Sequence record: NC_042084.1
Strand: one strand, 5' to 3'
Source: Escherichia phage VB_EcoS-Golestan
DNA length: 44,829 nucleotides
Below, piece after piece: positions 4,320 to 22,227 of the stretch. A program made the position numbers and the translations under genes. The notes below the pieces were generated by a model, which worked only from the letters and a program-made list of their open reading frames with translations, ran no database searches and was not told the origin of the DNA. Each line of letters begins with the position of its first letter. Within the stretch, counting starts at the first letter, position 1.

Positions 4320-4322
4320 TAA

Positions 4323-5008: not shown

Positions 5009-5011
5009 CCA

Positions 5012-5620: not shown

Positions 5621-5729
5621 CGACGCTGATGAGGATTTGGCCGTCGACGTTCAGAATGCTGAATGCGTACGGCAACTGAGACTGAAAGTGTTCATGTTGC
5701 AGGATTACGTGAGGAATATTCTGGAATAG
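5466..5729 (+). CDS. o-spanin (Rz1-like outer-membrane lipoprotein), overlapping architecture, GTG start
   Basis: 87 aa; lipobox LSAC, proline-rich mature region (SPAPSPTPIPSP); begins inside and extends beyond the i-spanin ORF; RBS AGAGGTGA. Confidence 0.6.
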   Translation: MKSLNTLKRQVAACALLTLSACSSSPAPSPTPIPSPDTTMMQPPCKLAQPSSDADEDLAVDVQNAECVRQLRLKVFMLQDYVRNILE

Positions 5730-5811
5730 TTGCCTTGCATGTTGGAATAATTTATTCTTGACATGTAAATCCGGGTGGCCCGGATTCCAACGTCCAGGGG
5801 ACATACTGACT

Positions 5812-6513
5812 ATGAATCGTTTTTTACGTTATCCGTTCCAGGAAGAAGCTGGAGCAGAAGATAAAGCTGGTGGCGGTGACGCTCCTAAAATGTTCACCGC
5901 TGAAGAAGTTCAGGCGCTGATTGAGAAAGAAGTTGCCGGGCTTAAGGCCAATCAGGAAGCATTGCTGGCGGAGAAGAAAGAAGCCGCCCGTAAAGCAAAA
6001 GAGGCCGAAGAAGAACGGCAGCGTGCGCACCAGGAGGCGTTAAAGGCCGCCGGTAAGATGGACGAGTTTGAAAAGACGATTCGTAGCCAGTATGACCCGG
6101 TGTTAGCCGAGAAAGATGGCCGCATCTCCAAAATGGCAGAGCGCATCCTCGGCAGCGAACGTAAAGCGGTGCTAGGCTCTTTCGCGGGTGACTTTATTAC
6201 CCCGGAAGCAGTGGACATCCTTGCGCCGTTCGTTAAGACTGAGTTCGAAGGTGATGATGTGGTTACTAAGTTTGTCGGCGCAGACGGTAACGTAATCACG
6301 ACTGACCCGGAACAGTTCCGCAAATACCTGCGTGAACACAAAGCGTTTTCGCATTTGATTAAAGCAAATGCAGCTTCCGGCGGCGGGGCTTCCGGTGGCA
6401 AAGGCGGCGGGGCCGCACCAGCGTTTAAAGACATGAGTGAAGCAGAGCGTTTAGCCCTGTATAAATCGAACCCTGCCGAATTTGAACGGCAACTTAAAGC
6501 CCTGAGGAAATAA
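5812..6513 (+). CDS. Scaffolding protein (probable); start taken at ATG 5812 rather than ORF-track 5758
   Basis: Charged, alpha-helical, coiled-coil-like sequence with Gly-rich tail; directly upstream of the major capsid gene. Confidence 0.55.
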   Translation: MNRFLRYPFQEEAGAEDKAGGGDAPKMFTAEEVQALIEKEVAGLKANQEALLAEKKEAARKAKEAEEERQRAHQEALKAAGKMDEFEKTIRSQYDPVLAEKDGRISKMAERILGSERKAVLGSFAGDFITPEAVDILAPFVKTEFEGDDVVTKFVGADGNVITTDPEQFRKYLREHKAFSHLIKANAASGGGASGGKGGGAAPAFKDMSEAERLALYKSNPAEFERQLKALRK

Positions 6514-6515
6514 TA

Positions 6516-7565
6516 ATGGCAATTACCACTATCGGCGATATCGTAACTGGCAACATCCCGGTCCTGGCGTCTTATATGACCGAGGACCCGGTAGAAAAAA
6601 CCGCGTTCTTCCAGTCTGGTATTCTCACCCCGACCCCATACGCCGCCGAGATTGCCCGCGGCCCGTCCAACGTCGCTAATATTCCTTTCTGGAAAGCGAT
6701 TGATACCTCTATCGAGCCGAACTACTCGAACGACGTATACCAGGACATCGCCACCCCGCGTAACGTGCAGACCGGCGAGATGATGGCGCGCGTTGCGTAC
6801 CTGAACGAAGGTTTCGGTCAGGCGGATTTGACCGTTGAACTGACCAGCCAGAACCCGCTGCAATCCGTAGCGTCACGTCTGGATAACTTCTGGCAGCGTC
6901 AGGCACAACGCCGTCTGATTGCTACCGCGCTCGGGCTGTACAATGACAACGTAGCCGCTACCGACGCATACCACGAGCAGAAGGACATGGTAATCGACGT
7001 GTCTGCTACTCTGGGCTTCGATGCGGGCGCGTTCATCGACGCTACCCAGACTATGGGCGATGCTCTGATGGGCAACGGCGGTGAAGTGCTGGGGGCTATC
7101 GCGATGCATAGCTTCGTTTATGCGCAGGCACGTAAGCAGCAGCTTATCGACTTCATCCGTGACGCGGACAACAACACCATGTTCGCCACCTACCAGGGCT
7201 ACCGCGTGATTGTTGACGACAGCATGACCGTAGTCGGCACTGGCCCGACCCGTAAGTTCATCTCCATCATCTTCGGCAACGGCGCTATCGGTTACGGTGA
7301 AGGTTCTCCGTCCAACCCGCTGGAATACGAGCGCGAAGCGTCCCGCGGCAACGGCGGCGGCGTTGAAACCCTGTGGACCCGTAAGACCTGGTTGCTACAT
7401 CCGTTTGGTTACAGCTTCACCAGTGCAGTAATCACTGGCAACGGCACCGAGACTACCCCGCGCTCTGCTTCCTGGCAGGACCTGGCGAACGCCTCCAACT
7501 GGAACCGTGTGGTTGAGCGTAAGCATGTACCGATTGCCTTCCTGGTAACTGGTGTCGGTGCCTAA
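6516..7565 (+). CDS. Major capsid protein
   Basis: 349 aa; RBS AGGAAA; follows scaffold, followed by strong terminator; typical size and position. Confidence 0.75.
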   Translation: MAITTIGDIVTGNIPVLASYMTEDPVEKTAFFQSGILTPTPYAAEIARGPSNVANIPFWKAIDTSIEPNYSNDVYQDIATPRNVQTGEMMARVAYLNEGFGQADLTVELTSQNPLQSVASRLDNFWQRQAQRRLIATALGLYNDNVAATDAYHEQKDMVIDVSATLGFDAGAFIDATQTMGDALMGNGGEVLGAIAMHSFVYAQARKQQLIDFIRDADNNTMFATYQGYRVIVDDSMTVVGTGPTRKFISIIFGNGAIGYGEGSPSNPLEYEREASRGNGGGVETLWTRKTWLLHPFGYSFTSAVITGNGTETTPRSASWQDLANASNWNRVVERKHVPIAFLVTGVGA

Positions 7566-7582
7566 GGTTAAGCTATAATCGA

Positions 7583-7609
7583 GAGGGACTTCGGTCCCTC
7601 TTTTCATTT
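7583..7609 (+). terminator. Rho-independent terminator/attenuator after the major capsid gene
   Basis: GAGGGAC-TTCG-GTCCCTC hairpin followed by TTTTCATTT. Confidence 0.55.
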
Positions 7610-7626
7610 ACTAAGAGGATTCCTAA

Positions 7627-7968
7627 ATGGCAGACGTATTGAAGCGACGCATCACCGGCGTCTCCGCTGACGCCCCGGGGGCCAAGATTGACATGGAGAC
7701 TATTTCTCCTGCGTCTTTCTCTACGGCACTTAACGCTACTACTGCAGTAACCGCAGGTGAAACTATGACGCTGACAGTCGTAGTAGCTGGCGGTCTTGAG
7801 CCATATTCTTACCAGTGGTATAAGAATAACAACGCTATCGCCGGGGCAAACGCTGCTACCTACGCTAAAGCGTCAACCACTACCGCCGATTCCGGCACGT
7901 ATAAAGTGGTTGTTCACGATGTGTATGGTAATATTATCTCCAGCAGCACCGCAGCAACTGTGTCTTAA
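7627..7968 (+). CDS. Ig-like domain protein (capsid decoration candidate)
   Basis: 113 aa; motif YSYQWYKNNNAI...SGTYKVVVHDVYG typical of Ig-like/Big domains; RBS AAGAGGA; paralogous to 3858-4319. Confidence 0.55.
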   Translation: MADVLKRRITGVSADAPGAKIDMETISPASFSTALNATTAVTAGETMTLTVVVAGGLEPYSYQWYKNNNAIAGANAATYAKASTTTADSGTYKVVVHDVYGNIISSSTAATVS

Positions 7969-7972
7969 TACA

Positions 7973-7990
7973 ACGGCCCTTCGGGGCCGT
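7973..7990 (+). terminator. GC-rich stem-loop (ACGGCCC-TTCG-GGGCCGT) without clear U-tract; RNA-stabilising hairpin or weak terminator
   Basis: Read directly from sequence. Confidence 0.3.
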
Positions 7991-8004
7991 AATAAGGAAA
8001 GGTC

Positions 8005-8184
8005 ATGGCAGATAATTATGTAATCCGCGAAAAGTACACCCACGTTGATGTTGTTGACGGTCAGGTGATGCCTGTTCGCGGTGCGGTAGAAGCGGAAGAA
8101 CTGGTTGCAACACAACCGGACAACGAAGAAGCGCACAACAACGGTGGTGGTACTAAGCGACGTCGCCGTAAGTCAGAGGAATAA
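8005..8184 (+). CDS. Small hypothetical protein (59 aa) with basic C-terminus
   Basis: Hand-translated MADNYVIREKYTHVDVV...; RBS AAGGAAAGG; below the ORF-track length cutoff. Confidence 0.3.
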   Translation: MADNYVIREKYTHVDVVDGQVMPVRGAVEAEELVATQPDNEEAHNNGGGTKRRRRKSEE

Positions 8185-8187
8185 TTT

Positions 8188-8700
8188 ATGCCGCTAATCG
8201 TGGAAGATGGGTCGATAGTACCTAACGCTGACAGTTACGTTAGTCTGGCTGACGCCCGCGCGTTAGCGGCTAATTATGGCCTGGAGCTACCGGAAGACGA
8301 TACTGCCACCGAAGTAGCCTTGCGCAACGGCGCTACTTATGTCGGGCTTGCAGAACCGCAGATGTGCGGCCGCCGTGTGTCCGCCGAGCAGTCCCTGGCG
8401 TACCCACGTACGGGAACAACACTAAACGGCTTCACCGTAGCTGATAATGTTATCCCACCGCAGTTAATCCGGGCGCAGGTAATCGCCGCTGTTACGTATG
8501 GAGCGGGCACTGATGTTCGGGCTAACTCCGATGGACGTTCCGTGCAGACCGAGCGTGTAGAGGGTGCGGTAACAGTTACCTACTTCAACAACGGCAACAG
8601 CGGGGCCACAACCGCGATCACCGCCGCTGACGACGCCTTACGCCCGTTACTGTGTGGTGGTCTTAACAACGGCTTCTCATTTAATGTGTACCGGGGTTAA
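8188..8700 (+). CDS. Head-tail connector / head completion protein (position-based)
   Basis: 170 aa; tight gene packing within the capsid-to-tail connector block. Confidence 0.45.
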   Translation: MPLIVEDGSIVPNADSYVSLADARALAANYGLELPEDDTATEVALRNGATYVGLAEPQMCGRRVSAEQSLAYPRTGTTLNGFTVADNVIPPQLIRAQVIAAVTYGAGTDVRANSDGRSVQTERVEGAVTVTYFNNGNSGATTAITAADDALRPLLCGGLNNGFSFNVYRG

Positions 8701-8702
8701 AA

Positions 8703-9317
8703 ATGGCGAAGACTAAATCAGAGATGTTTACTCTTATCGGCGCAAACCTCCCCGATAACACTACCGGGCTTATTACCCCAGCAGCGTTGCGCGAGGTAAT
8801 GACACAGATGGCTGACTCACCTATTTACGCCACTCCAGGTGTTAAAGAGGTTGAAGTTCTCCGTGCCACGTCTACGGTAACCCAAGCGCCTACCGCGGTA
8901 GATACGGCATTGCAGTTAACTTTCGGTGCAGCTCAGGGTAGTGCATCCGACCCGGTAATGATTAATGCTGCGGGGCTGGTTACATTCAACACCGCCGGTA
9001 ACCACGCCGTTCGCATCAAGTTACAGGCAGGCCGCACAGGTGCCAGCGGAACGTCTATCCTGTTATCACGCATTCTTCTGAACGGTGCTCAGTACGGCTC
9101 ACCTGCCGCCACGAAACTGGTAAGCGCGGACACCACAATCCCGATTGAATCTCGCGTTGTTATTAACCCAACAGCAGGCCAGACGTTTGCCGTTCAGATT
9201 ATGCGGGATAGCGTCGGAACTAACTTCGGTGGTGTATACCCGCAAGCGGCTACCGTAACCGCATGGGGTACAGCCCCGTCCGCGTTGCTGGTTATTTCGA
9301 GACTGGAGGCCGCCTGA
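8703..9317 (+). CDS. Structural protein of the connector region (position-based)
   Basis: 204 aa; 2-nt spacing after upstream gene. Confidence 0.4.
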   Translation: MAKTKSEMFTLIGANLPDNTTGLITPAALREVMTQMADSPIYATPGVKEVEVLRATSTVTQAPTAVDTALQLTFGAAQGSASDPVMINAAGLVTFNTAGNHAVRIKLQAGRTGASGTSILLSRILLNGAQYGSPAATKLVSADTTIPIESRVVINPTAGQTFAVQIMRDSVGTNFGGVYPQAATVTAWGTAPSALLVISRLEAA

Positions 9318-9676
9318 TGAGCACCGCTTTCAGTAAACGTATGCAAGGCGTGGGTACACGCCTGCTAACCAAATTCGGCAGCACGGTATCTCTGGTTCGT
9401 GCTGGCTCGAAAGTGTGGGATGAAGTTCTCGGTGAGTACGTCTGGTCTGCGGATGAAGTGTTGCCGTTGAAAGCGGTTCCGGTTCCGGTTAATGCTGGAC
9501 TGGTAAACGGTTCGACGATTCAGGCGGCCGACATGATTGTTAAAGCCGATTACAGCGTCGTTCCGAAGATGGAAGACAAGGTTCAGTTTAGCGGCGCGCA
9601 ATGGTCTATCGTAGCTATCGAGACGAAGATGGTTAACGATGATGTCGTGGCATATTTTATTCAGGTGAGAAAATGA
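9317..9676 (+). CDS. Head-tail joining protein (position-based); start set at ATG 9317
   Basis: TGATGA stop-start overlap with upstream gene; RBS GGAGGC. Confidence 0.45.
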   Translation: MSTAFSKRMQGVGTRLLTKFGSTVSLVRAGSKVWDEVLGEYVWSADEVLPLKAVPVPVNAGLVNGSTIQAADMIVKADYSVVPKMEDKVQFSGAQWSIVAIETKMVNDDVVAYFIQVRK

Positions 9677-10068
9677 GTTTCGCGCTTGATGTCTCTAAGT
9701 TCGTGGAAAAGGCGAAGAAGAACCCTGAGAAGGTGATGCGTCAGGTGTCTATCAAGCTGTTTTCCGCTATTATAAAGGCGAGTCCGGTAGATACTGGTCG
9801 GTTTCGCATGAACTGGATGGCATCTGGCGGTACTCCTGCTTCCGGGATTACGGATGCTACGGATAAATCAGGAAACACAGCAACCGGAAACGCTACAAGT
9901 TTCGTGCTGAAAGCCACCGACTGGCATGAGTTCACGCTGACAAATAACCTGCCGTATGCACAACGGCTGGAGTATGGCTGGTCGCAACAGGCCCCGCAAG
10001 GATTCGTCAGGACTAACGTGTCCCGCTTCCAGCAACTCATTAACGAAGAAGCTAGCAAGGTGAGATGA
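9673..10068 (+). CDS. Tail completion / neck protein (position-based)
   Basis: 131 aa; ATGA overlap; within connector block. Confidence 0.45.
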   Translation: MSFALDVSKFVEKAKKNPEKVMRQVSIKLFSAIIKASPVDTGRFRMNWMASGGTPASGITDATDKSGNTATGNATSFVLKATDWHEFTLTNNLPYAQRLEYGWSQQAPQGFVRTNVSRFQQLINEEASKVR

Positions 10069-10481
10069 TGGGCTACTTTGAGGACTTAACAAAAGCGTTT
10101 GATGTGCCGCTGGTAGCCTTCGGAACCACCAACGGCATCAAGGTAGCGCTTGAAAACATCGACGCGCCGACGTCAACAGATACGCCGTATCTGGCAAGTT
10201 ACATGTTGCTGGCGGATACCGAGCAGGCTGACTTATTCTTCACGGAACAACGCGCCGGTGTCTATCAGATAGACATTAACTACACATCGGTGAAAGGTAG
10301 CGCGCCAATCAATAAAATGGCAGACTTACTTAACACGGCGTTTAAATCAGGTAAGTCATTTTCACGTAACGACATCTGCGCCGAGGTTCAATCGGTTAGC
10401 CTGGGGCCGCTGATTGTAGAAAACGGATGGGCCAAAAGACCATTGTCAATTAACTTTATTGCATTCACCAAGAGGCTGTGA
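10065..10481 (+). CDS. Tail terminator-like protein (position-based)
   Basis: 138 aa; immediately upstream of the major tail protein. Confidence 0.4.
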   Translation: MMGYFEDLTKAFDVPLVAFGTTNGIKVALENIDAPTSTDTPYLASYMLLADTEQADLFFTEQRAGVYQIDINYTSVKGSAPINKMADLLNTAFKSGKSFSRNDICAEVQSVSLGPLIVENGWAKRPLSINFIAFTKRL

Positions 10482-11650
10482 ATATGGCTACAACTCCTTT
10501 TAAGGGCGCGAATACCGCGCAATTCTATGTGGCGGAAACTACCCCGGGCGTAACACCGGCTAACCCGGTATGGTCGCCACTGCGTAACACAGGCGGCGTT
10601 CCTGCCATTACCCGTGACACGCTGACCTCCAACGAACTGGACGGCAGCCGCGAAACTACATCCATCCGCACCGGTAACAAGCAGGTTAGCGGTGAATATG
10701 CTATTGAGCTTAGCTCGAAAAGCCAGGATGACTGGCTAGCCGGGGCTTTAGGCTCTACGTGGCAGGCTGGCGTATCTCTGTCAGGGCTATCGATTACCGT
10801 CGCACCGGCTGGCAAGACGTTCACACGTGCCACCGGCAGCTTTATCACTGACAGAGTTGGGGTAGGCGACCTGATTGCGTTTACCGATTTAACTGGCGAT
10901 AATGCAAAACCATTTATTGTTACTGCAGTAACGGCTACGGTTGTTACTGGTGCAGGCATCCAACACACCCTGACCACCGAGACAAAAACTAGTAAGGCTA
11001 AAACTGGCGACACGCTGGAAACCGGTAATACGTGTAAGACGTTCTCTATCCTTACCTGGTACAAAGGCCAGTGCGGCGGTACTGACGCGTACACGTTAAC
11101 CAAAGGCGTGGAAGTTTCTGGTTTTACCATCGAACAGGCTGTTAACGCGATGGTAACTGGCAGCTTCCCATTCATCGGTCGCAGTCAGGAGATTCTCACC
11201 ACGCCGCCGACCGGTTCCAACTTCTCATCTGTTACTTTTGGTGATGAGCCGTTTTCTTCGGTTGACGTTTCCGTGTTCGATGGTTCTACGCCGTTGCGAT
11301 GCGACAGTCTGACTATCACCAACGATAACAGCGCGTCCGCGCAGTTCGAACTTGGTAACACTAACGTAGCGTTTGTTGAGCGTAGCCGCGCGGCTAACAC
11401 TTTCTCCATCTCCGGCAAGCTGTACGACATGGCGATGATTCAGAAGTTTATCAACGAACAGCAGGTAGAGATTAACTCTATTCTGGCGGGGGTAAACGGG
11501 GCTATGTCTTTCAGTTTGAAACGCGCAGAGCTTACAGCAGTAACACCAGAGATTGGCGGACCCGAGTCAATCACTCAGTCCATTGAGGGGCAGGCCACCG
11601 GCAACCAGTACCAGTCGTCTATCGTAATTCAACGTATCACCTACGCATAA
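10478..11650 (+). CDS. Major tail protein
   Basis: 390 aa; Thr/Gly/Ser-rich beta-type composition; RBS AAGAGG; followed by terminator and later by tail chaperone/tape measure. Confidence 0.6.
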   Translation: MNMATTPFKGANTAQFYVAETTPGVTPANPVWSPLRNTGGVPAITRDTLTSNELDGSRETTSIRTGNKQVSGEYAIELSSKSQDDWLAGALGSTWQAGVSLSGLSITVAPAGKTFTRATGSFITDRVGVGDLIAFTDLTGDNAKPFIVTAVTATVVTGAGIQHTLTTETKTSKAKTGDTLETGNTCKTFSILTWYKGQCGGTDAYTLTKGVEVSGFTIEQAVNAMVTGSFPFIGRSQEILTTPPTGSNFSSVTFGDEPFSSVDVSVFDGSTPLRCDSLTITNDNSASAQFELGNTNVAFVERSRAANTFSISGKLYDMAMIQKFINEQQVEINSILAGVNGAMSFSLKRAELTAVTPEIGGPESITQSIEGQATGNQYQSSIVIQRITYA

Positions 11651-11682
11651 AACTAAGGCCCCTTTCGGGGCCTTTTTCTTAC
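11651..11682. terminator. Bidirectional rho-independent terminator
   Basis: AAGGCCCC-TTTC-GGGGCCTT flanked by an A-run and a T-run; separates convergent major tail gene and kinase gene. Confidence 0.6.
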
Positions 11683-12233
11683 AAACCTAATTTTAAAGCA
11701 ATGTCTATAACGTTCGATTTAACGTCACCCGGTATGATGTAGGTGTCGTAATCTTTTACACCACTAACATCATACAGATAGCCACGGCTATCGCCGATGA
11801 ACGTATAGCCGTCACGATGGAGGCGAACGATTTGCACGTCATGCCCTGCGGCGACGATAGGGGTAACTTCGCTGGCGAACCCACCATCGGACACCACAAA
11901 AACTTCGCCGCCGTCGGGCAAGTTCCCGGAAAGATACTTACCGAAATAATCATCGCCGAATACCGGTTTAACGAATTGCTCAGAAATGGCAATCATGAAC
12001 TGGCGACGAGATAACCCATTAAGGAAATCTTCTGGCTTTTCTTTCCGCGCCCGGTCGTCGTAGCCGTCGAGAAAGTCGTGGTAAGCATCCTGGCCTAACG
12101 CTGCCAAAGCAATATTGAACATCGGATTCTTGAAACGGGTAGTTCCTTTCGCAAAGCCCATCTCTACCAGCGCCCTAGCAAGTGTGTCTTTCCCACAACC
12201 AGCAGGGCCATTAAGAATAATTACCTTAGCCAT
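11679..12233 (-). CDS. P-loop NTPase / nucleotide or polynucleotide kinase-like protein
   Basis: 184 aa; Walker A GPAGCGKDT near N-terminus; coupled (ATGA overlap) to the upstream HAD phosphatase. Confidence 0.6.
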   Translation of the reverse strand: MAKVIILNGPAGCGKDTLARALVEMGFAKGTTRFKNPMFNIALAALGQDAYHDFLDGYDDRARKEKPEDFLNGLSRRQFMIAISEQFVKPVFGDDYFGKYLSGNLPDGGEVFVVSDGGFASEVTPIVAAGHDVQIVRLHRDGYTFIGDSRGYLYDVSGVKDYDTYIIPGDVKSNVIDIALKLGL

Positions 12234-12721
12234 TACTTATCACTCCCGTGTGATTTTAAGTGTGTAGAGTCCCCGTTACAGTCGTACTCAGTGACCGCGT
12301 GTGTCGTGATTCCTAAGCCACGGAAATGCTTAATCACCGCGGGAGAGTCGTCGAATGCGCACAAGATTCTTTCCAGTCCGAAAGCACGCAACACCTCTTC
12401 TTTAATTACGATGTCTTTTCTGTTGTCGTGTTTGCTGCGCATGATTAGCGTGTCAAACCTAACGTTATTCTCTCGTAACCATTCGCGAGTCTCCTCCTCA
12501 GCGTCATCACTTCGCCCGGTAAGGATAATTATAGTAAGTCCGGAATGCCACAGTACGCTACACAAATGGATATTGTCGTATATCGGAGCGTCATCTTTGC
12601 AGGCCATGTTAAATGGCTTCCACGCCCACGTTTCTCCGTAGTTATCTTTTGGTAACAGGTGTAAGCGATGGGTACCGTCGGCCAATGTCCCGTCTAAATC
12701 GAAAATTACAATATCTTTCAT
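12233..12721 (-). CDS. HAD-superfamily phosphatase (polynucleotide 3'-phosphatase / nucleotidase-like)
   Basis: 162 aa; HAD motifs FDLDGT (DxDGT), ILTGR, and DD (CAFDDS). Confidence 0.7.
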   Translation of the reverse strand: MKDIVIFDLDGTLADGTHRLHLLPKDNYGETWAWKPFNMACKDDAPIYDNIHLCSVLWHSGLTIIILTGRSDDAEEETREWLRENNVRFDTLIMRSKHDNRKDIVIKEEVLRAFGLERILCAFDDSPAVIKHFRGLGITTHAVTEYDCNGDSTHLKSHGSDK

Positions 12722-13848
12722 CCCAGCATCTCCGGTGAAATAGTTAAACGTGCGACCTCGCCATATTCGGCGCTATAAGTAATTACATTTGCACTGCGGC
12801 CCGACATCCATCCGCCGCGAGAGGCGTAGGCGTCTTTAGCCGCTAAGGTGCGGTGTTGCTCAACAATCATGTTACGGCTTTCTACAATCTTCTGGTGGTG
12901 CAGATGGCCTACGTGGGCGTAGCTGTAAACACTCTCGCCGAACGCTTTACGGAACTTGGCAATCATAACCGGTTCGATAGCGTCGAATCGTGCTTTATGC
13001 CCGTGATGGAAGAACAGCGTCGTTTTGCCGTGTTGCACCATCTTATAAACATCCGGCGACGTATCGACGAATACACGAGGCTCGTTGTCGTACAGTGTGC
13101 TGAACATCTCCGCCAGCCAAATCATCCCGGATTCGTCGTGGTTCCCCTGAACTATAAGCAAGCGAACAGTTTTATGCTTAACCAGAGCCATATCAACAAC
13201 ACGGCGGACCATGCGAATCATGTAGCGGACAAGTTTCTGGTAACGCGTGTCGGCGTCAAGGACATGACCACTCGCCGGTGTAACGGCGTCAAGACTATCG
13301 AAGTGAGCTAAGTCGCCAAGAAGATTAATAACCCCCGTACCTGCATCCGGTGCTTTCTGAAACGCAGCATCAAACCAACGAGAGAATAAGTCCTCCGCGA
13401 TTTTCATATCCCAGTCGTCGCCGCTCTCGTCAGCCCAGGCTAACATACCGAGATGGAAATCAGACACGGTGTACAGGTTAAGCAGCTTGTCGTCACGTTT
13501 AGCCCGGGCGGCCTTAACTGGCGGAACGGGAGTAATCTCCGACTTCATGCCTTCGACTACGGCTTTCATCAACTCAACCTGACGTTCGGCATCGGTGTCT
13601 GTCTTAACCCACTGCAACTTAGTGTTACCGAACTCGTCCACCAGAGACGACGTGCCTTTAATCTTGTAGCCGTCTGGTACAAGGTGGCTTACGTCCCGCC
13701 CGTGGCCTACGCCTTTCTTAGCCAGCTTCGCTTTACGGATTCGGATAACGCGGTCTGAGATTCCGTATTTACGGGCGATATCGATATTCTTCATCCCGGC
13801 GTTCAATTCTTCCTGTAATTGCTCGTCGGTTATTTTCTTCTGGGCCAT
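12718..13848 (-). CDS. HTH-containing calcineurin-like metallophosphoesterase (Mre11/SbcD-fold nuclease or phosphodiesterase candidate); start set at ATG 13848
   Basis: Metallophosphoesterase motifs DFH, GDLAHFD, GNHDE, HHGH, GHLHH; N-terminal HTH-like segment; RBS GAGGAAG before ATG 13848 (ORF-track start 13953 would overlap the next gene). Confidence 0.75.
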   Translation of the reverse strand: MAQKKITDEQLQEELNAGMKNIDIARKYGISDRVIRIRKAKLAKKGVGHGRDVSHLVPDGYKIKGTSSLVDEFGNTKLQWVKTDTDAERQVELMKAVVEGMKSEITPVPPVKAARAKRDDKLLNLYTVSDFHLGMLAWADESGDDWDMKIAEDLFSRWFDAAFQKAPDAGTGVINLLGDLAHFDSLDAVTPASGHVLDADTRYQKLVRYMIRMVRRVVDMALVKHKTVRLLIVQGNHDESGMIWLAEMFSTLYDNEPRVFVDTSPDVYKMVQHGKTTLFFHHGHKARFDAIEPVMIAKFRKAFGESVYSYAHVGHLHHQKIVESRNMIVEQHRTLAAKDAYASRGGWMSGRSANVITYSAEYGEVARLTISPEMLG

Positions 13849-13886
13849 GCTTACTTCCTCGTGTTTAGGATTTGTCTTATAGTAGC

Positions 13887-14078
13887 CTACTTCTCTTTCA
13901 CGTTCGAGTTGCAAGCCCAGATTAAAATGAATACCCACGGCAACAGAATCCACCCGAGAAATAAGTTAGCCATGAATATCGCCAGCTTTGCTTTATGGTT
14001 ACGCATATGGGCCACCAAAAACGGGATAAAATAAACGGCTACAAAAATAATTAAGAAGAACATAGTGATACCGGTCAT
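13887..14078 (-). CDS. Small two-TM membrane protein, superinfection-immunity (Imm)-like; start set at ATG 14078
   Basis: 63 aa; RBS AGGAG; motif NLFLGWILLPWVFILIWA recalled as characteristic of the Imm family. Confidence 0.5.
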   Translation of the reverse strand: MTGITMFFLIIFVAVYFIPFLVAHMRNHKAKLAIFMANLFLGWILLPWVFILIWACNSNVKEK

Positions 14079-14120
14079 AACATAACTCCTGATTTGAGAT
14101 AACATCGTCGGTGTAAGTGA

Positions 14121-14149
14121 ATAGTACGCTATTATATTGGGGTGTGCAA
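14121..14149 (-). promoter_or_regulatory. Family-1 promoter copy B (TTGCAC-N17-TACTAT) with inverted repeat AATAG-N4-CTATT (14120-14133)
   Basis: Near-identical to copies A, F and H; upstream of the accessory cassette. Confidence 0.5.
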
Positions 14150-14256
14150 GTAGTGTGCTAGAATAATTTTGCGCCTAGTGTCGCACACGAAAAGCGGGTG
14201 GTTCCCGTCTGGCGCATTTCCTTTAACCAGTAACCTCTTAACCAAAGGATTAAAGA

Positions 14257-14673
14257 ATGAAACTTTCTGATTTTTATTACGAAGCGGAAGCCGAAAAGGG
14301 CGCACGTATGCCGATACCGCTAAAAGACGGTACTGATTCCGGGGAATGGCTTAATGTTGTTTCTCCTGAGGCGGACGTTGCCGTTAAGGCTATGCGCGCG
14401 TTCACCCTTGCATACCGGGCAGTATTAGGGAAATTAAAACCGCTTCGTGATAAGTGCGAAGAGATGAAAGATTTCTCTGAATACAACCTGAAGATGGAAG
14501 ACGCGGCGACGGACCTTAACCGTCAGTTAGCGATTGAATTGGTTAACGGGTGGAGCCTTGACGACGAATTCAATAAAGAGAATCTGAACACACTCCTGAC
14601 GCAATATAAACGACTCGCGGAACTTGTTGTTGTGTTTCATAACGAACAACTGCACCAGCTACAGGAAAAGTAG
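14257..14673 (+). CDS. Tail assembly chaperone (gpG-like)
   Basis: 138 aa acidic protein immediately upstream of tape measure; downstream ORF in -1 frame. Confidence 0.5.
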   Translation: MKLSDFYYEAEAEKGARMPIPLKDGTDSGEWLNVVSPEADVAVKAMRAFTLAYRAVLGKLKPLRDKCEEMKDFSEYNLKMEDAATDLNRQLAIELVNGWSLDDEFNKENLNTLLTQYKRLAELVVVFHNEQLHQLQEK

Positions 14674-14678
14674 ACGCG

Positions 14679-15038
14679 TTGCTCCAGTTCGCCCGTTGGA
14701 ACTTCATAACCCGCCACAAACGGCGGGAATTTGACAGTATCGCCGATGGGCATAAAGCCGCGCTAATTGCTATGGGGGTTATGCAAGACGCGCCGGATGC
14801 AACGCAGGCCGCTGGGCCGGAATGCCCCCCTGAGCTACTAACCACATTTGAGAAGTACAGGGAAATTAAATTCACCCGCCGAGTGGACGACGACGGCATC
14901 AAGATGTACCCGCGCGAGCAATTACGATGGTCAGATTTAGTGGCGTACAGCACCGTTTCAGGCCAGAATATAGGGATGTTCGAATCCGACATCATCATGA
15001 GCTTAGACGCTATTTTCGAGGGTAGAAACGATGGCTGA
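14679..15038 (+). CDS. Tail assembly chaperone frameshift extension (gpT-like), likely expressed as a G-T fusion by -1 frameshift
   Basis: ORF is in the -1 frame relative to 14257-14673 and stays open across the upstream stop; A-rich tract GGAAAAG at 14664-14670 before the stop. Confidence 0.45.
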   Translation: MLQFARWNFITRHKRREFDSIADGHKAALIAMGVMQDAPDATQAAGPECPPELLTTFEKYREIKFTRRVDDDGIKMYPREQLRWSDLVAYSTVSGQNIGMFESDIIMSLDAIFEGRNDG

Positions 15039-17370
15039 TGTAGCTAGTTTAGTAGTAAAAGTAACAGAGCAAGGCGCGAAAGCCACATCAGACCGTCTTG
15101 ACAACCTTTCAAAGTCCGCAAAAGTAGCGGGGGCCGCCGTAGCAGGCCTTGCTTCTATCGTAGCGGCTACCGCGTATAAAGCTGCCCAAGAACTGGTTGA
15201 CTCACAGCGGCAACTGGACAAGATGTCCGCCAGTTTGAAGACCTTAACAGGAAGTACCCAAGGTGCTAAACAGGCGCTAAGTATCCTGCAAGATTTTGCC
15301 CGCGATACCCCATACGGACTGGAGCAGGCGGTGGAAGGCTTCCGTAAGCTGGTGGCCCTTGGCCTTACCCCATCCGAGGAGGCGTTGCGGTCCTACGGCA
15401 ATACCGCATCGGCTATGGGCAAGGACCTTAATCAGATGATTGAGGCGGTAGCCGACGCCAGTACGTTTGAGTTCGAACGCCTAAAAGAATTCGGCATCAA
15501 AGCCAAGCAGAACAAAAACGACGTAGAGTTTACATTCCGGGGGACAACAACCGTAGTTAAGAAAAGCGCTGCCGATATTGAGCAGTATTTACTTAATATT
15601 GGTAACGTAAATTTTGCCGGTGCCATGGCGGACCAGGCCAACACCCTTAATGGCGCTATCGCGAGCGCCAGTGACTCATGGTCGCAGCTAAAAATGACGC
15701 TTGCCACCAGTCTTGATGTTGGCGCACTTGCGGAACCTATCAGGTATATCGATGACTTGATCCAGGAATTAAACGCGTCTGTTGCTTCCGGTGAATTAGC
15801 CGCTGAAATGCAGATGTGGGGCGACATAGCGTCGGAAGTAGGAAGCGCTATCGAGATGTCATTCGACGCTGCGTTTGGCTTTGTTGGTGATGCCATCAAC
15901 GGGCTTAATGAACTGTGGGATTTCAGCAGCAAGAGTATTACCGATAGCGGAGAACAAACGGCCACCACCATCGCTGAATCCGCCGCCGATGCTCTTGACT
16001 TCATCGCGGAAGAGTTCACCGCGATGGAGAGATTCTTTGAAGATATGGTTAAAGGTGCTCAGGACGCTGGCCGTCTTGTACGCGCCGCTTTTACCCCCGG
16101 GGAATCAGTAGACGTAGCTAAAAATATCAACTTCCAGCTTGGCATGGCTTTGGATACCCAGCGCGATGTCGCCGACGTTACGCGTAAAAGTTTCCGCGAA
16201 CAGGTAGAAGCTCAACAGGATATTGTAGCGTTAAAACGCGCGGCGTATGACATCGATAAGGAGTCCGCAAAAGCTGAGGGGTTAAACAAATTTAAGGTAA
16301 CCGGAACCGGCGGCGGTTCTGACGATGACGGGTCAGCCGCAAAAGCCGCTAAGAAAGCAGCGGACGCGTTCGAGCGCCAGAAAAAGGCGGCGGAAGACTT
16401 CTACTATCAGTCAATCCATCTTAATGATGACGTATTTCAGAAAATAGAAGCTAACCAGGAAGAGCAACTGTCTAAGTTGCAGGATTTTTATAGCAATAAG
16501 CTTCTTAGCGACCAACAGTACGAAAACGCCAAGACGCAGATTATGCTCTCTGCCGAACAGGCCCGCCAGGAAGAACTGGACAAGAAAAGGAAAGAAGCCC
16601 AGGAGAAGCAGCAGAAAGGTGATGATTTCATGGCTCAGATTATGGGCCAGAACGCCACCGAGCTTGAGCTTCTGGATATTCAGGAACAGCAGAAACTGGC
16701 GGTAGCCGATAAGTACCGGGAACAAGGTCTGATTAGCGAGAAGCAGTATCAGGCTGCGCTTAACGCCATCAACGAGCAGTACGCAACCAAGCGTGCCGAC
16801 GCAACGGCAACAGCTTTCGGTAACATGGCCTCAAACATCGGGTCTGCGTTGGGCGAGGCTTCTGGCGCGTATAAGGCATTCGCTATCGTACAGGCTACTA
16901 TAGCCACGTACACCGCAGCTATTGAGGCATACAAGTCAACGGCTGCTATCCCTGTTGTTGGCCCGTTCCTGGCCCCTGTAGCCGCTGCCGCTGCCGTCGG
17001 GGCAGGTATGGCGCAGATTTCCGCTATCAGGTCAGCACGTGAACAGGGTGGACAGTTATCCGCCGGGCAGGCTTCCACCATCGCTGAACGCGGTAAACCC
17101 GAAGTTATCATGCCCGCTGGCGCATCGCGTGTGCGCACCGCGCAGCAGATGAAAGAAATTATGGGGCAAAACGGGTCTTCTTCCGGCCCATCTAATGTTA
17201 CCATTGTAAATAATACATCGAGTCAGATTGGCAACGTATCCACCGAGCAGGATGATGAAGGCCGTCTGCGTATCATCATAGAAGAGCAAGTTGCTGCATC
17301 TTTGCAGAACAGCAACAGTAAGATTAGCAAGGCCCGCAAGGCCACAAGAAACGCGCCGGGGTTTAAATAA
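15031..17370 (+). CDS. Tape measure protein
   Basis: 779 aa; Ala/Gln-rich coiled-coil composition; located after the chaperone pair and before tail tip genes. Confidence 0.8.
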   Translation: MADVASLVVKVTEQGAKATSDRLDNLSKSAKVAGAAVAGLASIVAATAYKAAQELVDSQRQLDKMSASLKTLTGSTQGAKQALSILQDFARDTPYGLEQAVEGFRKLVALGLTPSEEALRSYGNTASAMGKDLNQMIEAVADASTFEFERLKEFGIKAKQNKNDVEFTFRGTTTVVKKSAADIEQYLLNIGNVNFAGAMADQANTLNGAIASASDSWSQLKMTLATSLDVGALAEPIRYIDDLIQELNASVASGELAAEMQMWGDIASEVGSAIEMSFDAAFGFVGDAINGLNELWDFSSKSITDSGEQTATTIAESAADALDFIAEEFTAMERFFEDMVKGAQDAGRLVRAAFTPGESVDVAKNINFQLGMALDTQRDVADVTRKSFREQVEAQQDIVALKRAAYDIDKESAKAEGLNKFKVTGTGGGSDDDGSAAKAAKKAADAFERQKKAAEDFYYQSIHLNDDVFQKIEANQEEQLSKLQDFYSNKLLSDQQYENAKTQIMLSAEQARQEELDKKRKEAQEKQQKGDDFMAQIMGQNATELELLDIQEQQKLAVADKYREQGLISEKQYQAALNAINEQYATKRADATATAFGNMASNIGSALGEASGAYKAFAIVQATIATYTAAIEAYKSTAAIPVVGPFLAPVAAAAAVGAGMAQISAIRSAREQGGQLSAGQASTIAERGKPEVIMPAGASRVRTAQQMKEIMGQNGSSSGPSNVTIVNNTSSQIGNVSTEQDDEGRLRIIIEEQVAASLQNSNSKISKARKATRNAPGFK

Positions 17371-18788
17371 TGAGCGACTTATACTTTCCACGTAGCCTTA
17401 AGCCGGTGGTATCAAAAGGCTACTCAATGACCAGACGTAACAACGTCTGGAGTGTAGATTTAGCCGGTGGCGGGGTGCGTCAGGGCCGTGACACGTATTA
17501 CGACGTGTTCCCTGTTAGCGTAACCCTGATTACATCCGCAATGGGGCGACAGGCGTTTCTGTCGTTCCTCGAGAAAGTCGATGGTGGCGCGTCAAGTTTC
17601 TGGATGGCGCACGACTTCGGCATGGGTATTGAGGATTATCAGGTAACCATCACGTCCACTATAGCGGAGTCCACCGAAGACGGGATTAACTGGACAATTA
17701 CCTTCACGGCAACCGCCGAGAAATCGCCGTTCCAGGACCTTGAGAACCAATGCCTGATTAACAATCTTCCGGATTTGTATGGCTGTTATGGTGATTGCCT
17801 GGGCAGTTTCCTGAAAATATATGCGAACTACGAGACTACGTTCCCACGCATCTGGAGTAATGAAGGGCCTGCGGGATACCCGCCAATTAACCTTCTGGCG
17901 TCCGCGCTGGATAGCCGCATTGTTTATGAGGGGCCACAGGTATACCACATCAACCGAAACGGCAATCTTGTGCCATCAGCCGCAAATGAATGGCCCCTTA
18001 CGTTTATTGACGGGGTTGCTGTTGGGCGTGTGCCACCAGAAGGCGGTTCTATTAACTACCAGATAGGCGGGTTAGGTATTGGGTGGGTACATACTTTCAA
18101 CCGTATACCACTAACATCAACAGAGGACAGTGTATATCAAGGCAACCTGGCGGGCACAGTCACCCCAACAGCAGAAAATAACAGCCATTTCTTGTATGCC
18201 GAATCGCTGGGGGATTCAGTAATAGATGTTGGGGAAACATATACTGCTACGGTAATTCTTAAGGCGAATGGTGTCCAGTTTATTCAGGTTTATTGGAACG
18301 CAGGTAGCACAGGGATTTCACCGCACTACTCTAACTTCGACCTTATTAATAAAGCTGTATCAGGCACGGCGACATCGGCTTTCGTAACTGAAATATCTGA
18401 TGGGTGGGTTCTATGCTCAACTACCACAACCGCGACAGGAGACGGTTCTGCACTATCCTCCATCGCGGTGGCAAGCGTACCGTCTATGACGTCTACCAGA
18501 CTCCCGTCTTACGCATCGGATGGAGCATCTTCTTTTTCAGTTGCGTCCGCTCAGGTTGAAAAAAAACCATTTGCCACGTCGCCGATAGTAACTGACGCAT
18601 CACCATCCGCCCGCCCGGCGGCATCGGCAAAAGTAGCAATGAACGGCGCAACAAGCATCGACATTACCTATTCTGACGGCACTGTGGTAAACATTCCAGC
18701 GATTGGAGATTACGCCGCCATCCCACAGGCTGATTCTGCGTGGGGCAGTAAATACATCACTCGTATTGATTTTAATGTGGGCGGTTAA
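17370..18788 (+). CDS. Minor tail protein (distal tail / tail tip component)
   Basis: 472 aa; ATGA overlap with tape measure stop. Confidence 0.5.
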   Translation: MSDLYFPRSLKPVVSKGYSMTRRNNVWSVDLAGGGVRQGRDTYYDVFPVSVTLITSAMGRQAFLSFLEKVDGGASSFWMAHDFGMGIEDYQVTITSTIAESTEDGINWTITFTATAEKSPFQDLENQCLINNLPDLYGCYGDCLGSFLKIYANYETTFPRIWSNEGPAGYPPINLLASALDSRIVYEGPQVYHINRNGNLVPSAANEWPLTFIDGVAVGRVPPEGGSINYQIGGLGIGWVHTFNRIPLTSTEDSVYQGNLAGTVTPTAENNSHFLYAESLGDSVIDVGETYTATVILKANGVQFIQVYWNAGSTGISPHYSNFDLINKAVSGTATSAFVTEISDGWVLCSTTTTATGDGSALSSIAVASVPSMTSTRLPSYASDGASSFSVASAQVEKKPFATSPIVTDASPSARPAASAKVAMNGATSIDITYSDGTVVNIPAIGDYAAIPQADSAWGSKYITRIDFNVGG

Positions 18789-18791
18789 CTT

Positions 18792-19307
18792 ATGAGTCAG
18801 GAATCAGTAGAAGCAGCCTACCGCCGTAAGCTGGCCTCAAACCCCGACGGCGAGATTGACTACACGACGCTGGAGATAGTGCATCCGCTTCTTTCGAAGC
18901 GGTATTTACTTGTGCGCGGGCTACAGGAACTTACGGCAACACTGGAGACAGGCGAAACTATCACATTCGAACCTACCCCGATGGAGGCGTCGGGGGCGGC
19001 TAACAACAGTGATATGGACCAGACGACAACATTCACTCTGCCGGATATTCTCAATCAACTGGATGATGAGATGGATAAAATCCCGATGAGTAATACCGAG
19101 TTACCGAAGTTCATATTCCGCCGTTACGTCAGCACTGACCTGTCTTACCCGGCTGACGGCCCTGTCGTGTACGAGTTACAGGCCATTAATCAGGAGAAGG
19201 GCGAGTTCTCCGCAGATGTCGGTACACCTATGCTGAACCAACGAAGCACTGGTATACTGATGACACCTAAAGAGATACCGTTATTACGCGGCCTGTTGAC
19301 CACATGA
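18792..19307 (+). CDS. Minor tail protein
   Basis: 171 aa; position within tail tip block. Confidence 0.45.
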   Translation: MSQESVEAAYRRKLASNPDGEIDYTTLEIVHPLLSKRYLLVRGLQELTATLETGETITFEPTPMEASGAANNSDMDQTTTFTLPDILNQLDDEMDKIPMSNTELPKFIFRRYVSTDLSYPADGPVVYELQAINQEKGEFSADVGTPMLNQRSTGILMTPKEIPLLRGLLTT

Positions 19308-19669
19308 ATATTAACGACTACACGGGAATACCTTACGACTTTCGCAAACGCAATTGCTGGCATCACGTTCGCATTGTACGGGCCGATGCCGGGTTAGAAA
19401 CCCCGGCGTTCGACGTTACAAGCCCAACGGCGATTAACGAAGCGTTCGACGAAGGCCATCGTGACACGAAGGGGCTTACGAAGATTGATAAGCCTGAAAA
19501 CTTCTGTGCGGTGCTTATGGGGTATCGCCGTGGCGGTCGTATCGTGTGGCACGCGGGAGTTTACTTCGACGGGATGGTGAGTCATTGCGAGCTTGCGTCC
19601 CGTCAGGTACGACTTGACCGGCTGGCGGACCTCAGAGACACGTACACGGAGATTGAATTTTGGCGATAA
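19304..19669 (+). CDS. Tail assembly protein with NlpC/P60-like Cys/His motif (gpK-like)
   Basis: 121 aa; NCWHHV and WHAGVYFDGMVSHCE resemble papain-like NlpC/P60 catalytic Cys and His. Confidence 0.5.
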   Translation: MNINDYTGIPYDFRKRNCWHHVRIVRADAGLETPAFDVTSPTAINEAFDEGHRDTKGLTKIDKPENFCAVLMGYRRGGRIVWHAGVYFDGMVSHCELASRQVRLDRLADLRDTYTEIEFWR

Positions 19670-22227
19670 TCCTGCACTACACGCGAAATGCCGACGGGGC
19701 TTTCGACCGTACAAAACACGTCGGGATGCCGATGGAGTTTGTCGTTAACCGTATCCCGGACGGCGTTCCGGTACGCGTCTATCTTGGCGAGATTGGTGAT
19801 GATACTGATGTTACAGACGACTTCGACGCGCTCAAAGACGAGGACGCCGTGTACCACATTATTGAGGGCGCTGGCGGCGGCATTGGCGACGCCCTTGGGA
19901 GTGTATTCAGTTTCATCCTTAAGCCAATCGCCAAATTGTTCGGGCTAAACACAGCGGCTAACGCTAATTATTCCGCTACCAACAATCAGGCTACGTCGCC
20001 TAACAACAGTCTCACCGACCGCTCAAACAAGCCACGACCTTATGAGCGTTCTTATGATATCTGCGGGACAGTGCAGACCATCCCCAATGACCTGATGCAA
20101 ACATATAAGGTGTTTAATGCCGCGGGTGCGCTTATTGAATATGCGTACTATGACGCCGGTCGAGGGTATCTGCATATTGAGGAAGACGGTGTAACTGAGG
20201 CAGATACCCGAATCAGCGAGATAACTGGCTCGTCGGTGGCGGTGTATTCCCCTTACACTTCGCCGAATAACACCAACGCCCCACAATTGCATATTGGCGA
20301 CCCGATAGACCAGAAATTGTACGTTACATTTAAAAACGCCGATGTCGATGGCGCTGTTCTTCCCGCCCCTAATGATATCGCTATAGACGTGCAGGACTAC
20401 ACTGTCCAGCGGCAGGGAACAACCGGCGTTGTAATAGGCGATGACGCTGGTTTCGATGAGTTTTTGGCTGTCGGAGACCTGGCATATTTCGATAACGTAT
20501 ATGCGGACACAACTCCTGGGTCTTTAGGTAATGAGGTTAACTTAGACGGGAGGTACACTGTTCTTTCTGTTAGTGAAACGACCCTTATTGTGGACGTCAG
20601 TACAAATCAATCAATATGGAACCAGCTAGGGTCATCGGTGTGGTTTATAGGTGAAGAGGGTAACCATCTCATAGGTCCGGCGGACACTTACGCGGCTTCC
20701 CTCTCTGAATGGGCGTACATCACCCGCGGTACGGTCAACCGTGTTGTAGCCAATGTCGCCGCCAGCAACGGCATGTATAAATATAACGGCGATTATAACC
20801 GTGCCTCCGTTACGGTGGAACTGCAATACCAGATGGTGGACGAATTGAAACAGCCCGTTGGTGGCATATTCACCGTGCAAGGCACTGTTACAGGGAGAAA
20901 CACCGATTACACTGGTATTACCCTATACGGAAGCTTGCCTACCGCTTCCAGATTCCGCGCCCGTATGCGCCGTGTTTCCGATACTGATAAAGATTTTGAG
21001 GGTACTGTTAGCGACGAGGTTACTTTCACTAATCTGTACGGGCAGTCACTGGATACAACCCCGCACTACGGCAACCGCACTACTGTACACTGCGCTCGTA
21101 AACAAACCCCACGTGCCGCCGAGGTGTCAGAACCGGAACTGCGCATGATTGCTACCGAGATGTGCTACAAATACTTAGGTAACGGCGTATTCGATACGGT
21201 AATGACACCGAACACTCAGGCCGTGCAGTCGCTAATCAGGCTGGCGCGTGACCCTGTGGTGGGTAATCTGGAACTGACAACGGCAAACATGGACAAGTTA
21301 CTCGCTGTGCAGGAAGAAATTGAATCCTATTTTGGAAGTGAATTAGCGGGGCAGTTCTGCTACACGTTCGACGACTACGACACCACGATGCAGGACATCG
21401 TTCAGACCATCGCGGAAGCCGTTTTCTGTACTGCGTACCGTAAAGGTGCGGATATTATGCTGCGATTTGATCGTCCGGTTGCGGGGCCCGAAATGGTGTT
21501 CACCCACCGCAGCAAAACGACCGGTACGGAGAAATGGACGCGCACGTTCAACGATTCGACAACCTACGATAGCCTGTCGTTCTCGTACATTGACCCGGAT
21601 ACAAACGTACAGGAGACGATTTATATCCCGGAAGAACTCGGCGCGAACACCGAGGAGTACGAATCGAAGGGTGTACGTAACTATCAGCAAGCGTACTGGC
21701 TGGCGTGGCGTCGCTACCAGCGCAACACGTTAAGTAAAGTTGTCGTAGAGTTCGAAGCTACCGAAGAAGGCGCTCTCGCTACTCCCGGCGGCGTAATCAG
21801 CGTGGTTAAAGGTTCACGTATCGCGCCTCAGGATGGTTATGTTGTTGCCGTTAATGGGCTTACGCTGACACTGTCGCAACCTGTTACGTTTACCCCCGGC
21901 GATGACCACTCCATCATCCTCAAGAAGCGCGATGGCTCCGTGCAGAGTATTTCTGTTATCAAAGGAAGCCACGACCGCGAGGTGATTATGCTCTCCGCGC
22001 CGGAGGAGGCAATCTACACGGGGAATAGCGCACTAAAAACTGAGTTTTCATTCGGCAACGAAGCAAGGCATAATGCTCAGAAGATAGTTGTTTCTTCAAT
22101 CGACCCCGGCGACGACCGCACGGTCAAGATTACTGGTTACAACTATGACGACGGATTCTATAAATACGACGGCGTCGCGCCATACGGCAGCAGCTTCTCC
22201 GACGGATTCAGCAATGGTTTTAATTAA
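19660..22227 (+). CDS. Tail tip / host specificity protein (gpI/gpJ-like central fibre); TTG start, alternative ATG at 19729
   Basis: 855 aa; Gly-rich segment GAGGGIGDALG near N-terminus; large beta-rich protein after the gpK-like gene. Confidence 0.55.
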   Translation: MAIILHYTRNADGAFDRTKHVGMPMEFVVNRIPDGVPVRVYLGEIGDDTDVTDDFDALKDEDAVYHIIEGAGGGIGDALGSVFSFILKPIAKLFGLNTAANANYSATNNQATSPNNSLTDRSNKPRPYERSYDICGTVQTIPNDLMQTYKVFNAAGALIEYAYYDAGRGYLHIEEDGVTEADTRISEITGSSVAVYSPYTSPNNTNAPQLHIGDPIDQKLYVTFKNADVDGAVLPAPNDIAIDVQDYTVQRQGTTGVVIGDDAGFDEFLAVGDLAYFDNVYADTTPGSLGNEVNLDGRYTVLSVSETTLIVDVSTNQSIWNQLGSSVWFIGEEGNHLIGPADTYAASLSEWAYITRGTVNRVVANVAASNGMYKYNGDYNRASVTVELQYQMVDELKQPVGGIFTVQGTVTGRNTDYTGITLYGSLPTASRFRARMRRVSDTDKDFEGTVSDEVTFTNLYGQSLDTTPHYGNRTTVHCARKQTPRAAEVSEPELRMIATEMCYKYLGNGVFDTVMTPNTQAVQSLIRLARDPVVGNLELTTANMDKLLAVQEEIESYFGSELAGQFCYTFDDYDTTMQDIVQTIAEAVFCTAYRKGADIMLRFDRPVAGPEMVFTHRSKTTGTEKWTRTFNDSTTYDSLSFSYIDPDTNVQETIYIPEELGANTEEYESKGVRNYQQAYWLAWRRYQRNTLSKVVVEFEATEEGALATPGGVISVVKGSRIAPQDGYVVAVNGLTLTLSQPVTFTPGDDHSIILKKRDGSVQSISVIKGSHDREVIMLSAPEEAIYTGNSALKTEFSFGNEARHNAQKIVVSSIDPGDDRTVKITGYNYDDGFYKYDGVAPYGSSFSDGFSNGFN

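Follow-up and report, generated by a model that had tools for sequence, protein, structure and literature searches.

The genome of Escherichia phage VB_EcoS-Golestan (NC_042084.1), whose full 44,829-nt sequence is the window analyzed here, carries a cassette of four minus-strand genes inside its tail module. A first-pass annotation made from the sequence alone had called their products an Imm-like membrane protein, a helix-turn-helix (HTH) metallophosphoesterase (MPE), a HAD phosphatase and a P-loop kinase. All four open reading frames (ORFs) were found where that annotation had placed them, between the tail tube and tail assembly chaperone genes (Table 1). Its domain calls were supported by Pfam for the HAD and Imm-like proteins and by matches to PHROG families 139, 415, 704 and 1039 (1.5e-43, 3.1e-65, 2.1e-167 and 3.1e-24, respectively).

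Table 1. Genes and predicted elements of the minus-strand cassette and its flanks, in window coordinates
Feature	Coordinates	Strand	Basis or remark
Tail tube protein gene (flank)	10484-11650		PF18906, 4.5e-38
Bidirectional intrinsic-terminator hairpin	11655-11674	both	serves tail tube gene (+) and cassette (-)
P-loop kinase, T4 gp1 dNMP kinase type (184 aa)	11679-12233	-	ORF; start overlaps HAD stop
Standalone HAD phosphatase, Pnkp 3'-phosphatase type (162 aa)	12233-12721	-	ORF; start overlaps MPE stop (ATGA)
HTH-metallophosphoesterase (HTH-MPE), predicted DNA nuclease (376 aa)	12718-13848	-	ORF
Imm-like small membrane protein (63 aa)	13887-14078	-	ORF, ATG preceded by a ribosome-binding site
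Promoter-like element ("family-1") with conserved leader	14106-14151 (about)	-	repeated, conserved sequence
Tail assembly chaperone gene (flank)	14257-14673		PF08748

Stop and start codons overlap by 4 nt between the MPE and HAD genes and by 1 nt between the HAD and kinase genes. The HTH-MPE was assigned the ATG at 13848, which is preceded by a GAGGAAG ribosome-binding site (RBS), is the start given in GenBank and encodes an M1 that is nearly invariant in the family alignment. A longer GTG ORF for this protein (411 aa, to 13953) overlaps imm, and the 376-aa ATG start was preferred to it. The imm ORF itself can extend to 14105, with an AGGAG RBS favoring the start at 14078.

A search with the 3-kb cassette region matched 325 phage records, the best being Escherichia phage vB_EcoS_SCS44 (ON001686.1; Guernseyvirinae, Kagunavirus). 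Window positions 5402-20400 are collinear with ON001686.1; over these 15 kb the two differ by 96 substitutions and by no indel, and the cassette proteins of the two phages differ by three amino-acid changes in the kinase and by none in the HAD, MPE or Imm proteins. Horizontal acquisition of the cassette was considered and set aside, as its GC content (0.49-0.50) hardly differs from that of the flanks. The genes are already annotated in GenBank, inconsistently. No functional or comparative study of the MPE-HAD-kinase trio turned up in a literature search on the module, Drexlerviridae MPEs and escape mutants.

The cassette would be transcribed leftward as a unit of its own, apart from the tail genes, from a promoter-like element to a bidirectional hairpin. 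Six of the 8 bp in the hairpin stem are GC pairs, the loop is 4 nt long and a T-run follows on either strand. The hairpin sits 4 nt past each converging stop codon, in agreement with the bidirectional terminator of the first-pass annotation, which would end both converging units. What had been called a family-1 promoter is a real repeated element, whose promoter activity is predicted from its sequence. Upstream of imm, on the minus strand, the element extends over ~45 bp (TTGCACACCCCAATATAATAGCGTACTATTCACTTAC), and the window holds four copies, at 4895-4913 (-), 14131-14149 (-), 37911-37929 (+) and 39113-39131 (+), with the consensus TTGCACAC..CCAAyATAATAGgGTACTATTCAcTtAC..AACGAG. It lies upstream of the cassette in all 15 of 15 Kagunavirus-like contigs, with no more than 5 mismatches in 37 positions. 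The element can be parsed as TTGCAC-17 nt-TACTAT; alternatively, its embedded TATAAT would be a perfect -10 paired with a weak -35. A generic sigma-70 scan upstream of imm called no promoter. Conservation of the copies runs ~25 nt past the -10 region, and the element may also contain an operator or a conserved leader.

The other copies of this element precede small early-region ORFs and a second minus-strand insert in the head module. Sharing a promoter-like element with early-region ORFs suggests that the cassette is probably expressed together with the early genes and not with those for the tail. Kagunavirus RNA-seq data, which are coarse, place imm in a temporal class different from that of the tail genes (PMC12645636).

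The head-module insert consists of two ORFs behind the same element, at 4415-4759 (-) and 4756-4857 (-), the first encoding a 114-aa protein that carries a lipoprotein signal (MKYIKLAVAGVVAVCLSGC), the second a hydrophobic protein of 33 aa; GC content dips to 0.454 here. A Pfam search of these ORFs returned no match, and the 114-aa product could be an exclusion lipoprotein.

The kinase matches a PHROG family labeled deoxynucleoside monophosphate (dNMP) kinase (PHROG 139), with no Pfam family above cut-off, and its predicted structure is a P-loop nucleoside monophosphate (NMP) kinase fold closest to T4 gp1. A profile comparison with T4 gp1 by hhalign reached a probability of 68.7% (E 4.5e-5 over 73 columns), a connection that HMMER profiles did not give, and aligned the GKD P-loop, YDRE and LNGKSP motifs. 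A Pnkp-type polynucleotide 5'-kinase domain was also looked for in this protein and was not found. By its predicted fold and profile alignment, the kinase thus resembles the dNMP kinase gp1 of T4, not a polynucleotide kinase.

The neighborhoods of kinase homologues were examined in other phages. The T7-like Yersinia phage vB_YenP_WX1 encodes a homologue (48.7% identity) directly after gene 1.6 (locus positions 3498-4064). The gene 1.6 product of WX1 is 94% identical to T7 gp1.6, and the homologue thus stands in the slot of T7 gene 1.7, annotated as a nucleotide kinase. It has no sequence similarity to T7 gp1.7, which makes this a non-orthologous displacement in which an unrelated gp1-like P-loop kinase took the place of the gene 1.7 kinase. 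In rV5 (rV5_ev168, locus positions 3504-4705), the kinase gene overlaps a downstream gene for an NT5C-family 5'(3')-deoxyribonucleotidase, adjacent to the genes for thymidylate synthase and ribonucleotide reductase (RNR). The WX1 slot and the rV5 neighborhood show that the genomic context agrees with a mononucleotide kinase. The pairing of this kinase with a HAD-superfamily phosphatase therefore recurs in rV5, with a different HAD family.

The HAD protein belongs to the Pfam family HAD_PNKP (PF25109, 4.5e-20, 72.7 bits against a cut-off of 27.6), and its matches in PDB are Pnkp1 from Capnocytophaga (4xrp, 5.7e-6) and the phosphatase of T4 Pnkp (5uj0, 2.1e-4; 1ltq, 2.7e-3). All of its motifs are present (FDLDGT, LTGRS, RKD..KEE and FDDS), and tblastn matched the pseT genes of T-even phages at 27-32% identity. 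A standalone relative with 44% identity was found in Krischvirus vB_EcoM_G37-3 (locus positions 3498-3974), where it closes the nrdA-nrdB operon; its gene shows translational coupling to nrdB, and a terminator comes after it. The HAD protein, which also matches T4-type pseT genes, has a second match in the G37-3 record, probably the pseT-type gene of that phage. Membership in HAD_PNKP together with the nrdAB location suggests that the chemistry is Pnkp-like 3'-dephosphorylation and that the standalone relative has a setting in nucleotide metabolism and not in RNA repair.

The HTH-MPE belongs to a large family, with 4637 clusters at 50% identity and 2048 phage records. In the predicted model, an HTH at residues 8-44 is followed by a beta-hairpin and helix at 61-102 and by the MPE domain at 119-376, with no capping domain after the MPE core, and an N-terminal HTH of sigma-r4, GerE or Fis type was detected across the family. 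The five metal motifs of the MPE fold are present (DxH, GD, GNH(D/E), H and GHxH). Among 50 homologues with 30-50% identity, D130, H132, G178, D179, N236, H237, H282, G314 and H317 do not vary, and at least 90% also retain G235 and H315. Pfam Metallophos scores were below cut-off, and a profile search against PDB sequences gave no significant match. Motif II has the nuclease-type form GDxxH and aligns with Thermotoga Mre11, and the top structural matches of the model are the DNA nucleases PolD DP1, Mre11 and SbcD. A Foldseek search of the model against BFVD returned mostly unnamed phage proteins.

The HTH-MPE was also compared with T5 A1 (locus positions 1706-3376), whose annotation makes it a requirement for the degradation of host DNA. 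A full set of MPE-like motifs is present in the A1 family (GDIH, HD..D, SNHD, HGH and GHTH), and many A1 homologues (45-49% identity) have N-terminal HTH Pfam domains. In hhalign the two family profiles show only weak similarity (probability 26.5%, E 7e-4), and the parts that align convincingly are limited to motifs III-V and an ITY stretch at the C terminus. Directly upstream of A1 lies T5.005, a gene for a protein with two transmembrane (TM) segments, which echoes the imm-MPE arrangement.

The first-pass annotation had held that neither the combination of genes nor its location was a standard module. In one sense this does not hold: the cassette occupies this tail-module position in at least 52 phage records, and the MPE-HAD-kinase order recurs in other phage groups. 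The Imm-like gene is a variable add-on. It was detected before the trio in 10 of the 15 Kagunavirus-like contigs and at none of the other loci fetched. Its product matches Imm_superinfect (PF14373, 1.8e-13, 50.6 bits against a cut-off of 27.9) as well as phrog_1039, and contains two hydrophobic stretches that are putative membrane helices. It is separate from the trio and dispensable to it, and probably serves superinfection exclusion.

Among 80 kinase-bearing IMG/VR loci, MPE, HAD and kinase are contiguous and in the same order in 54. These contigs are Kagunavirus-like, are Webervirus-like or belong to a third group and, many being near-identical, represent about three lineages. Another 11 loci have HAD and kinase without this MPE, and 15 have the kinase alone. 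The trio adjoins lysis genes in Klebsiella Weberviruses. Aeromonas phage Tola and two contigs encoding RNA polymerase (Autographiviridae-like) have a different, HTH-less Metallophos protein before HAD-kinase, and in Tola an ATP-dependent DNA ligase directly follows the trio. These short Autographiviridae-type MPEs were tried as orthologues of the HTH-MPE and rejected as non-orthologous, as hhalign showed no relationship to the HTH-MPE family. In the Salmonella Jerseyvirus fmb-p1 (locus positions 2609-5144), an HTH-MPE with 88.6% identity sits in the same slot between tail tube and chaperone genes, followed by an ORF of 68 aa and, where HAD-kinase would stand, by a gene for a Rha/ANT antirepressor-like protein. 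This makes the slot a variable region with the MPE as its anchor. Taken together, gene content across these loci points to a nested modular picture of kinase, HAD plus kinase, and MPE plus HAD plus kinase, with Imm as an optional passenger.

Our tentative interpretation, which we favor while rating it as slightly less than an even prospect, is that the cassette is a module for DNA breakdown and dNMP salvage. The first-pass annotation had offered this as an alternative, an Mre11/SbcD-type or T5 A1-like nuclease working with nucleotide-salvage enzymes, and it is preferred here with the MPE nearest to DNA nucleases and the kinase gp1-like. The three translationally coupled enzymes form the conserved core and probably act on DNA breakdown products. 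In the proposed pathway, the HTH-MPE would serve as a DNA-binding two-metal nuclease of the Mre11/SbcD/PolD-DP1 kind that converts DNA, most likely the host chromosome, to 5'-dNMPs and short oligonucleotides. The HAD phosphatase would then strip 3'-phosphates from fragment ends, 3'-dNMPs or 3',5'-bisphosphates, leaving unblocked ends and 5'-dNMPs. The gp1-type kinase would phosphorylate 5'-dNMPs to deoxynucleoside diphosphates (dNDPs), from which host Ndk would make the triphosphates (dNTPs) used by the phage DNA polymerase. The kinase step is the best-supported, as the sole step to which several independent lines of evidence point, while the nuclease and phosphatase roles are proposed from similarity and context.

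Several other observations fit the salvage reading. The annotated gene set of a close relative includes a DNA polymerase and has no annotated RNR, thymidylate synthase or ligase. T1 and TLS degrade the chromosome of the host and recycle the nucleotides, which has been on record for T1 since 1981, and the responsible genes are unidentified (PMC11447400). In TLS, gp66, gp09 and gp14 are annotated as a proofreading/DNA repair exonuclease, a polynucleotide kinase and a dNMP kinase, encoded by dispersed genes (PMC11447400); gp66 alone of these three was matched directly in our analysis. Guernseyvirinae trigger Ec2ApeA, a sensor of deoxydinucleotides (bioRxiv 10.64898/2026.01.26.701840), which, like the reuse of host DNA by T1 and TLS, is consistent with salvage.

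Other points weigh against this interpretation. E. coli already possesses NMP kinases, and characterized HAD_PNKP members act on polynucleotide 3' ends. HMMER searches of PDB with the single kinase sequence and two profiles returned only P-loop matches and did not reach the T4 gp1 structure 1DEK. The sigma-r4/GerE-like HTH of the MPE could instead serve sequence-specific binding or regulation. The MPE occurs alone in T1 (gp16 being the HTH-MPE homologue), in Rtp, which has a homologue of T1 gp16, and in Dhillonvirus, and without HAD-kinase in Jerseyvirus, and the kinase occurs alone in many phages, showing that the three genes are not obligately linked. Dhillonvirus is reported to be ApeA-resistant despite an MPE 76% identical to that of the window, and the degradation of host DNA by Kagunaviruses is an assumption of the proposal.

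A different division of labor, which we consider unlikely, would have the MPE act on phage DNA as a nuclease for replication or recombination, through SbcCD/Mre11-like end or hairpin processing or DP1-like proofreading, with the HAD and kinase as unrelated nucleotide-pool enzymes in the same operon. PolD DP1, Mre11 and SbcD lead the structural matches, the MPE stands alone at the end of the replication/recombination block in T1-like phages, the TLS homologue is annotated as a proofreading exonuclease, and this MPE is also found without the HAD-kinase pair, and the pair without this MPE. Against these observations, the same gene order in unrelated phages and the placement of a non-orthologous MPE before HAD-kinase argue for a functional link, the promoter type is that of small early-region ORFs, and no Rad50/SbcC-like partner is annotated in the close relative. 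It is very improbable, in our judgment, that the cassette acts in counter-defense at the nucleotide level, with the MPE and HAD destroying immune signaling nucleotides or the kinase re-phosphorylating dNMPs and dNDPs against dNTP-depleting defenses. A precedent exists in the PUA-Cal-HAD defense, in which bacterial calcineurin-CE and HAD enzymes hydrolyze dNTPs stepwise (bioRxiv 10.64898/2026.01.15.699771), and the cassette lies in a variable, moron-like slot beside an Imm-like gene. None of the four proteins matched a PADLOC model (E <= 0.01), however, the MPE with its DNA-binding HTH is more like nucleases than nucleotide phosphodiesterases, and no published phenotype was found in the literature.

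The first-pass annotation had put forward split Pnkp-like RNA end-healing against anticodon nucleases, and our results do not support that proposal. End-healing would assign to the MPE the opening of 2',3'-cyclic phosphates or the trimming of ends, to the HAD the removal of 3'-phosphates and to the kinase the phosphorylation of 5'-OH ends; tRNA or DNA broken by defense nucleases could then be resealed by a host ligase. The HAD does fall in the Pnkp phosphatase family, Pnkp of Clostridium thermocellum provides an example of MPE enzymes as end-healing phosphoesterases, the Tola trio is followed by an ATP-dependent DNA ligase, and the three genes are tightly coupled. The kinase is gp1-like, however, and alone fills the place of T7 gp1.7; the standalone HAD relative sits in an nrdAB operon of a phage whose record has a second match, probably its pseT-type gene, so that homologues of both enzymes are found in nucleotide-metabolism contexts, and the best MPE matches are DNA nucleases. 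The window contains no tRNA gene, and the first-pass remark that no ligase is present agrees with the close relative (99.0% identical over the 3-kb query region), which has none among its 76 annotated genes. Guernseyvirinae are also reported to be sensitive to ApeA, which cleaves tRNA. End-healing of this kind is therefore distinctly unlikely. Improbable too is a more specific version in which the trio would be a ligase-less counter-defense, with an HTH-guided MPE, a Pnkp-type 3'-phosphatase and a gp1-like kinase repurposed for polynucleotides that together convert the 3'-phosphate/5'-OH or cyclic-phosphate breaks left by defense nucleases in phage DNA or host tRNA to 3'-OH/5'-phosphate ends for sealing by host ligase. 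If true, ligase-less end-healing would be a new phage route to undo nuclease-based immunity.

In Kagunavirus, the T1-like phages and other small virulent siphophages, genes for nucleotide synthesis are few or absent. The HTH-MPE occurs widely among phages, including T1, and its operon linkage to a predicted 3'-phosphatase and dNMP kinase in several lineages offers a concrete candidate pathway. The main value of the salvage proposal is that it gives a testable candidate for the long-unidentified genes by which T1-like and related siphophages degrade and reutilize host DNA. DNA breakdown products trigger the ApeA and PUA-Cal-HAD defenses, and enzymes that make or consume such products may thus affect phage detection. 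The analysis also corrects database labels, with the "polynucleotide kinase" being a phosphatase only and the "hypothetical" or "ATPase" protein a gp1-like kinase.

Compared with known systems, the salvage logic proposed here parallels T7 gp3/gp6 with gp1.7, T4 gp46/47 with gp1 and T5 A1/Dmp/Dnk, using different enzymes gathered in one operon. The likeness to T7 lies in the kinase homologue that a T7-like phage carries at the position of gene 1.7 and in the proposed route from nuclease to dNMP to dNDP; the cassette differs in that its kinase lacks similarity to gp1.7, an HTH-MPE would replace gp3/gp6, a 3'-phosphatase is added and all of the genes form one operon. The cassette kinase shares 19% identity with the T4 gp1 dNMP kinase (1DEK) and is shorter (184 aa versus 241 aa). 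Like the phosphatase of T4 Pnkp (pseT), the cassette HAD is a HAD_PNKP member with DxDGT, (S/T)GR, RKD and DD motifs, but it is a standalone protein of 162 aa that is not fused to a Pnkp-type kinase and has no RNA ligase partner among the annotated genes of the relative; standalone DNA 3'-phosphatases are known, for example Tpp1 from yeast. The cassette MPE departs from Mre11, SbcD and PolD DP1 in having an N-terminal HTH and a small beta-hairpin domain in place of capping and OB domains, no annotated Rad50/SbcC or polymerase partner, and no significant sequence similarity to them. The Imm-like protein shares with T4 Imm an Imm_superinfect match above cut-off and a small size with two predicted membrane helices, although it is not conserved with the trio. 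Finally, the T5 pre-early genes A2, T5.005, A1 and dmp resemble imm-MPE-HAD, as a gene for a small 2-TM protein precedes A1 and the early unit also encodes a nucleotide phosphatase. T5 A1 is larger, at 556 aa, and whereas T5 Dmp degrades 5'-dNMPs, the cassette kinase would conserve them.

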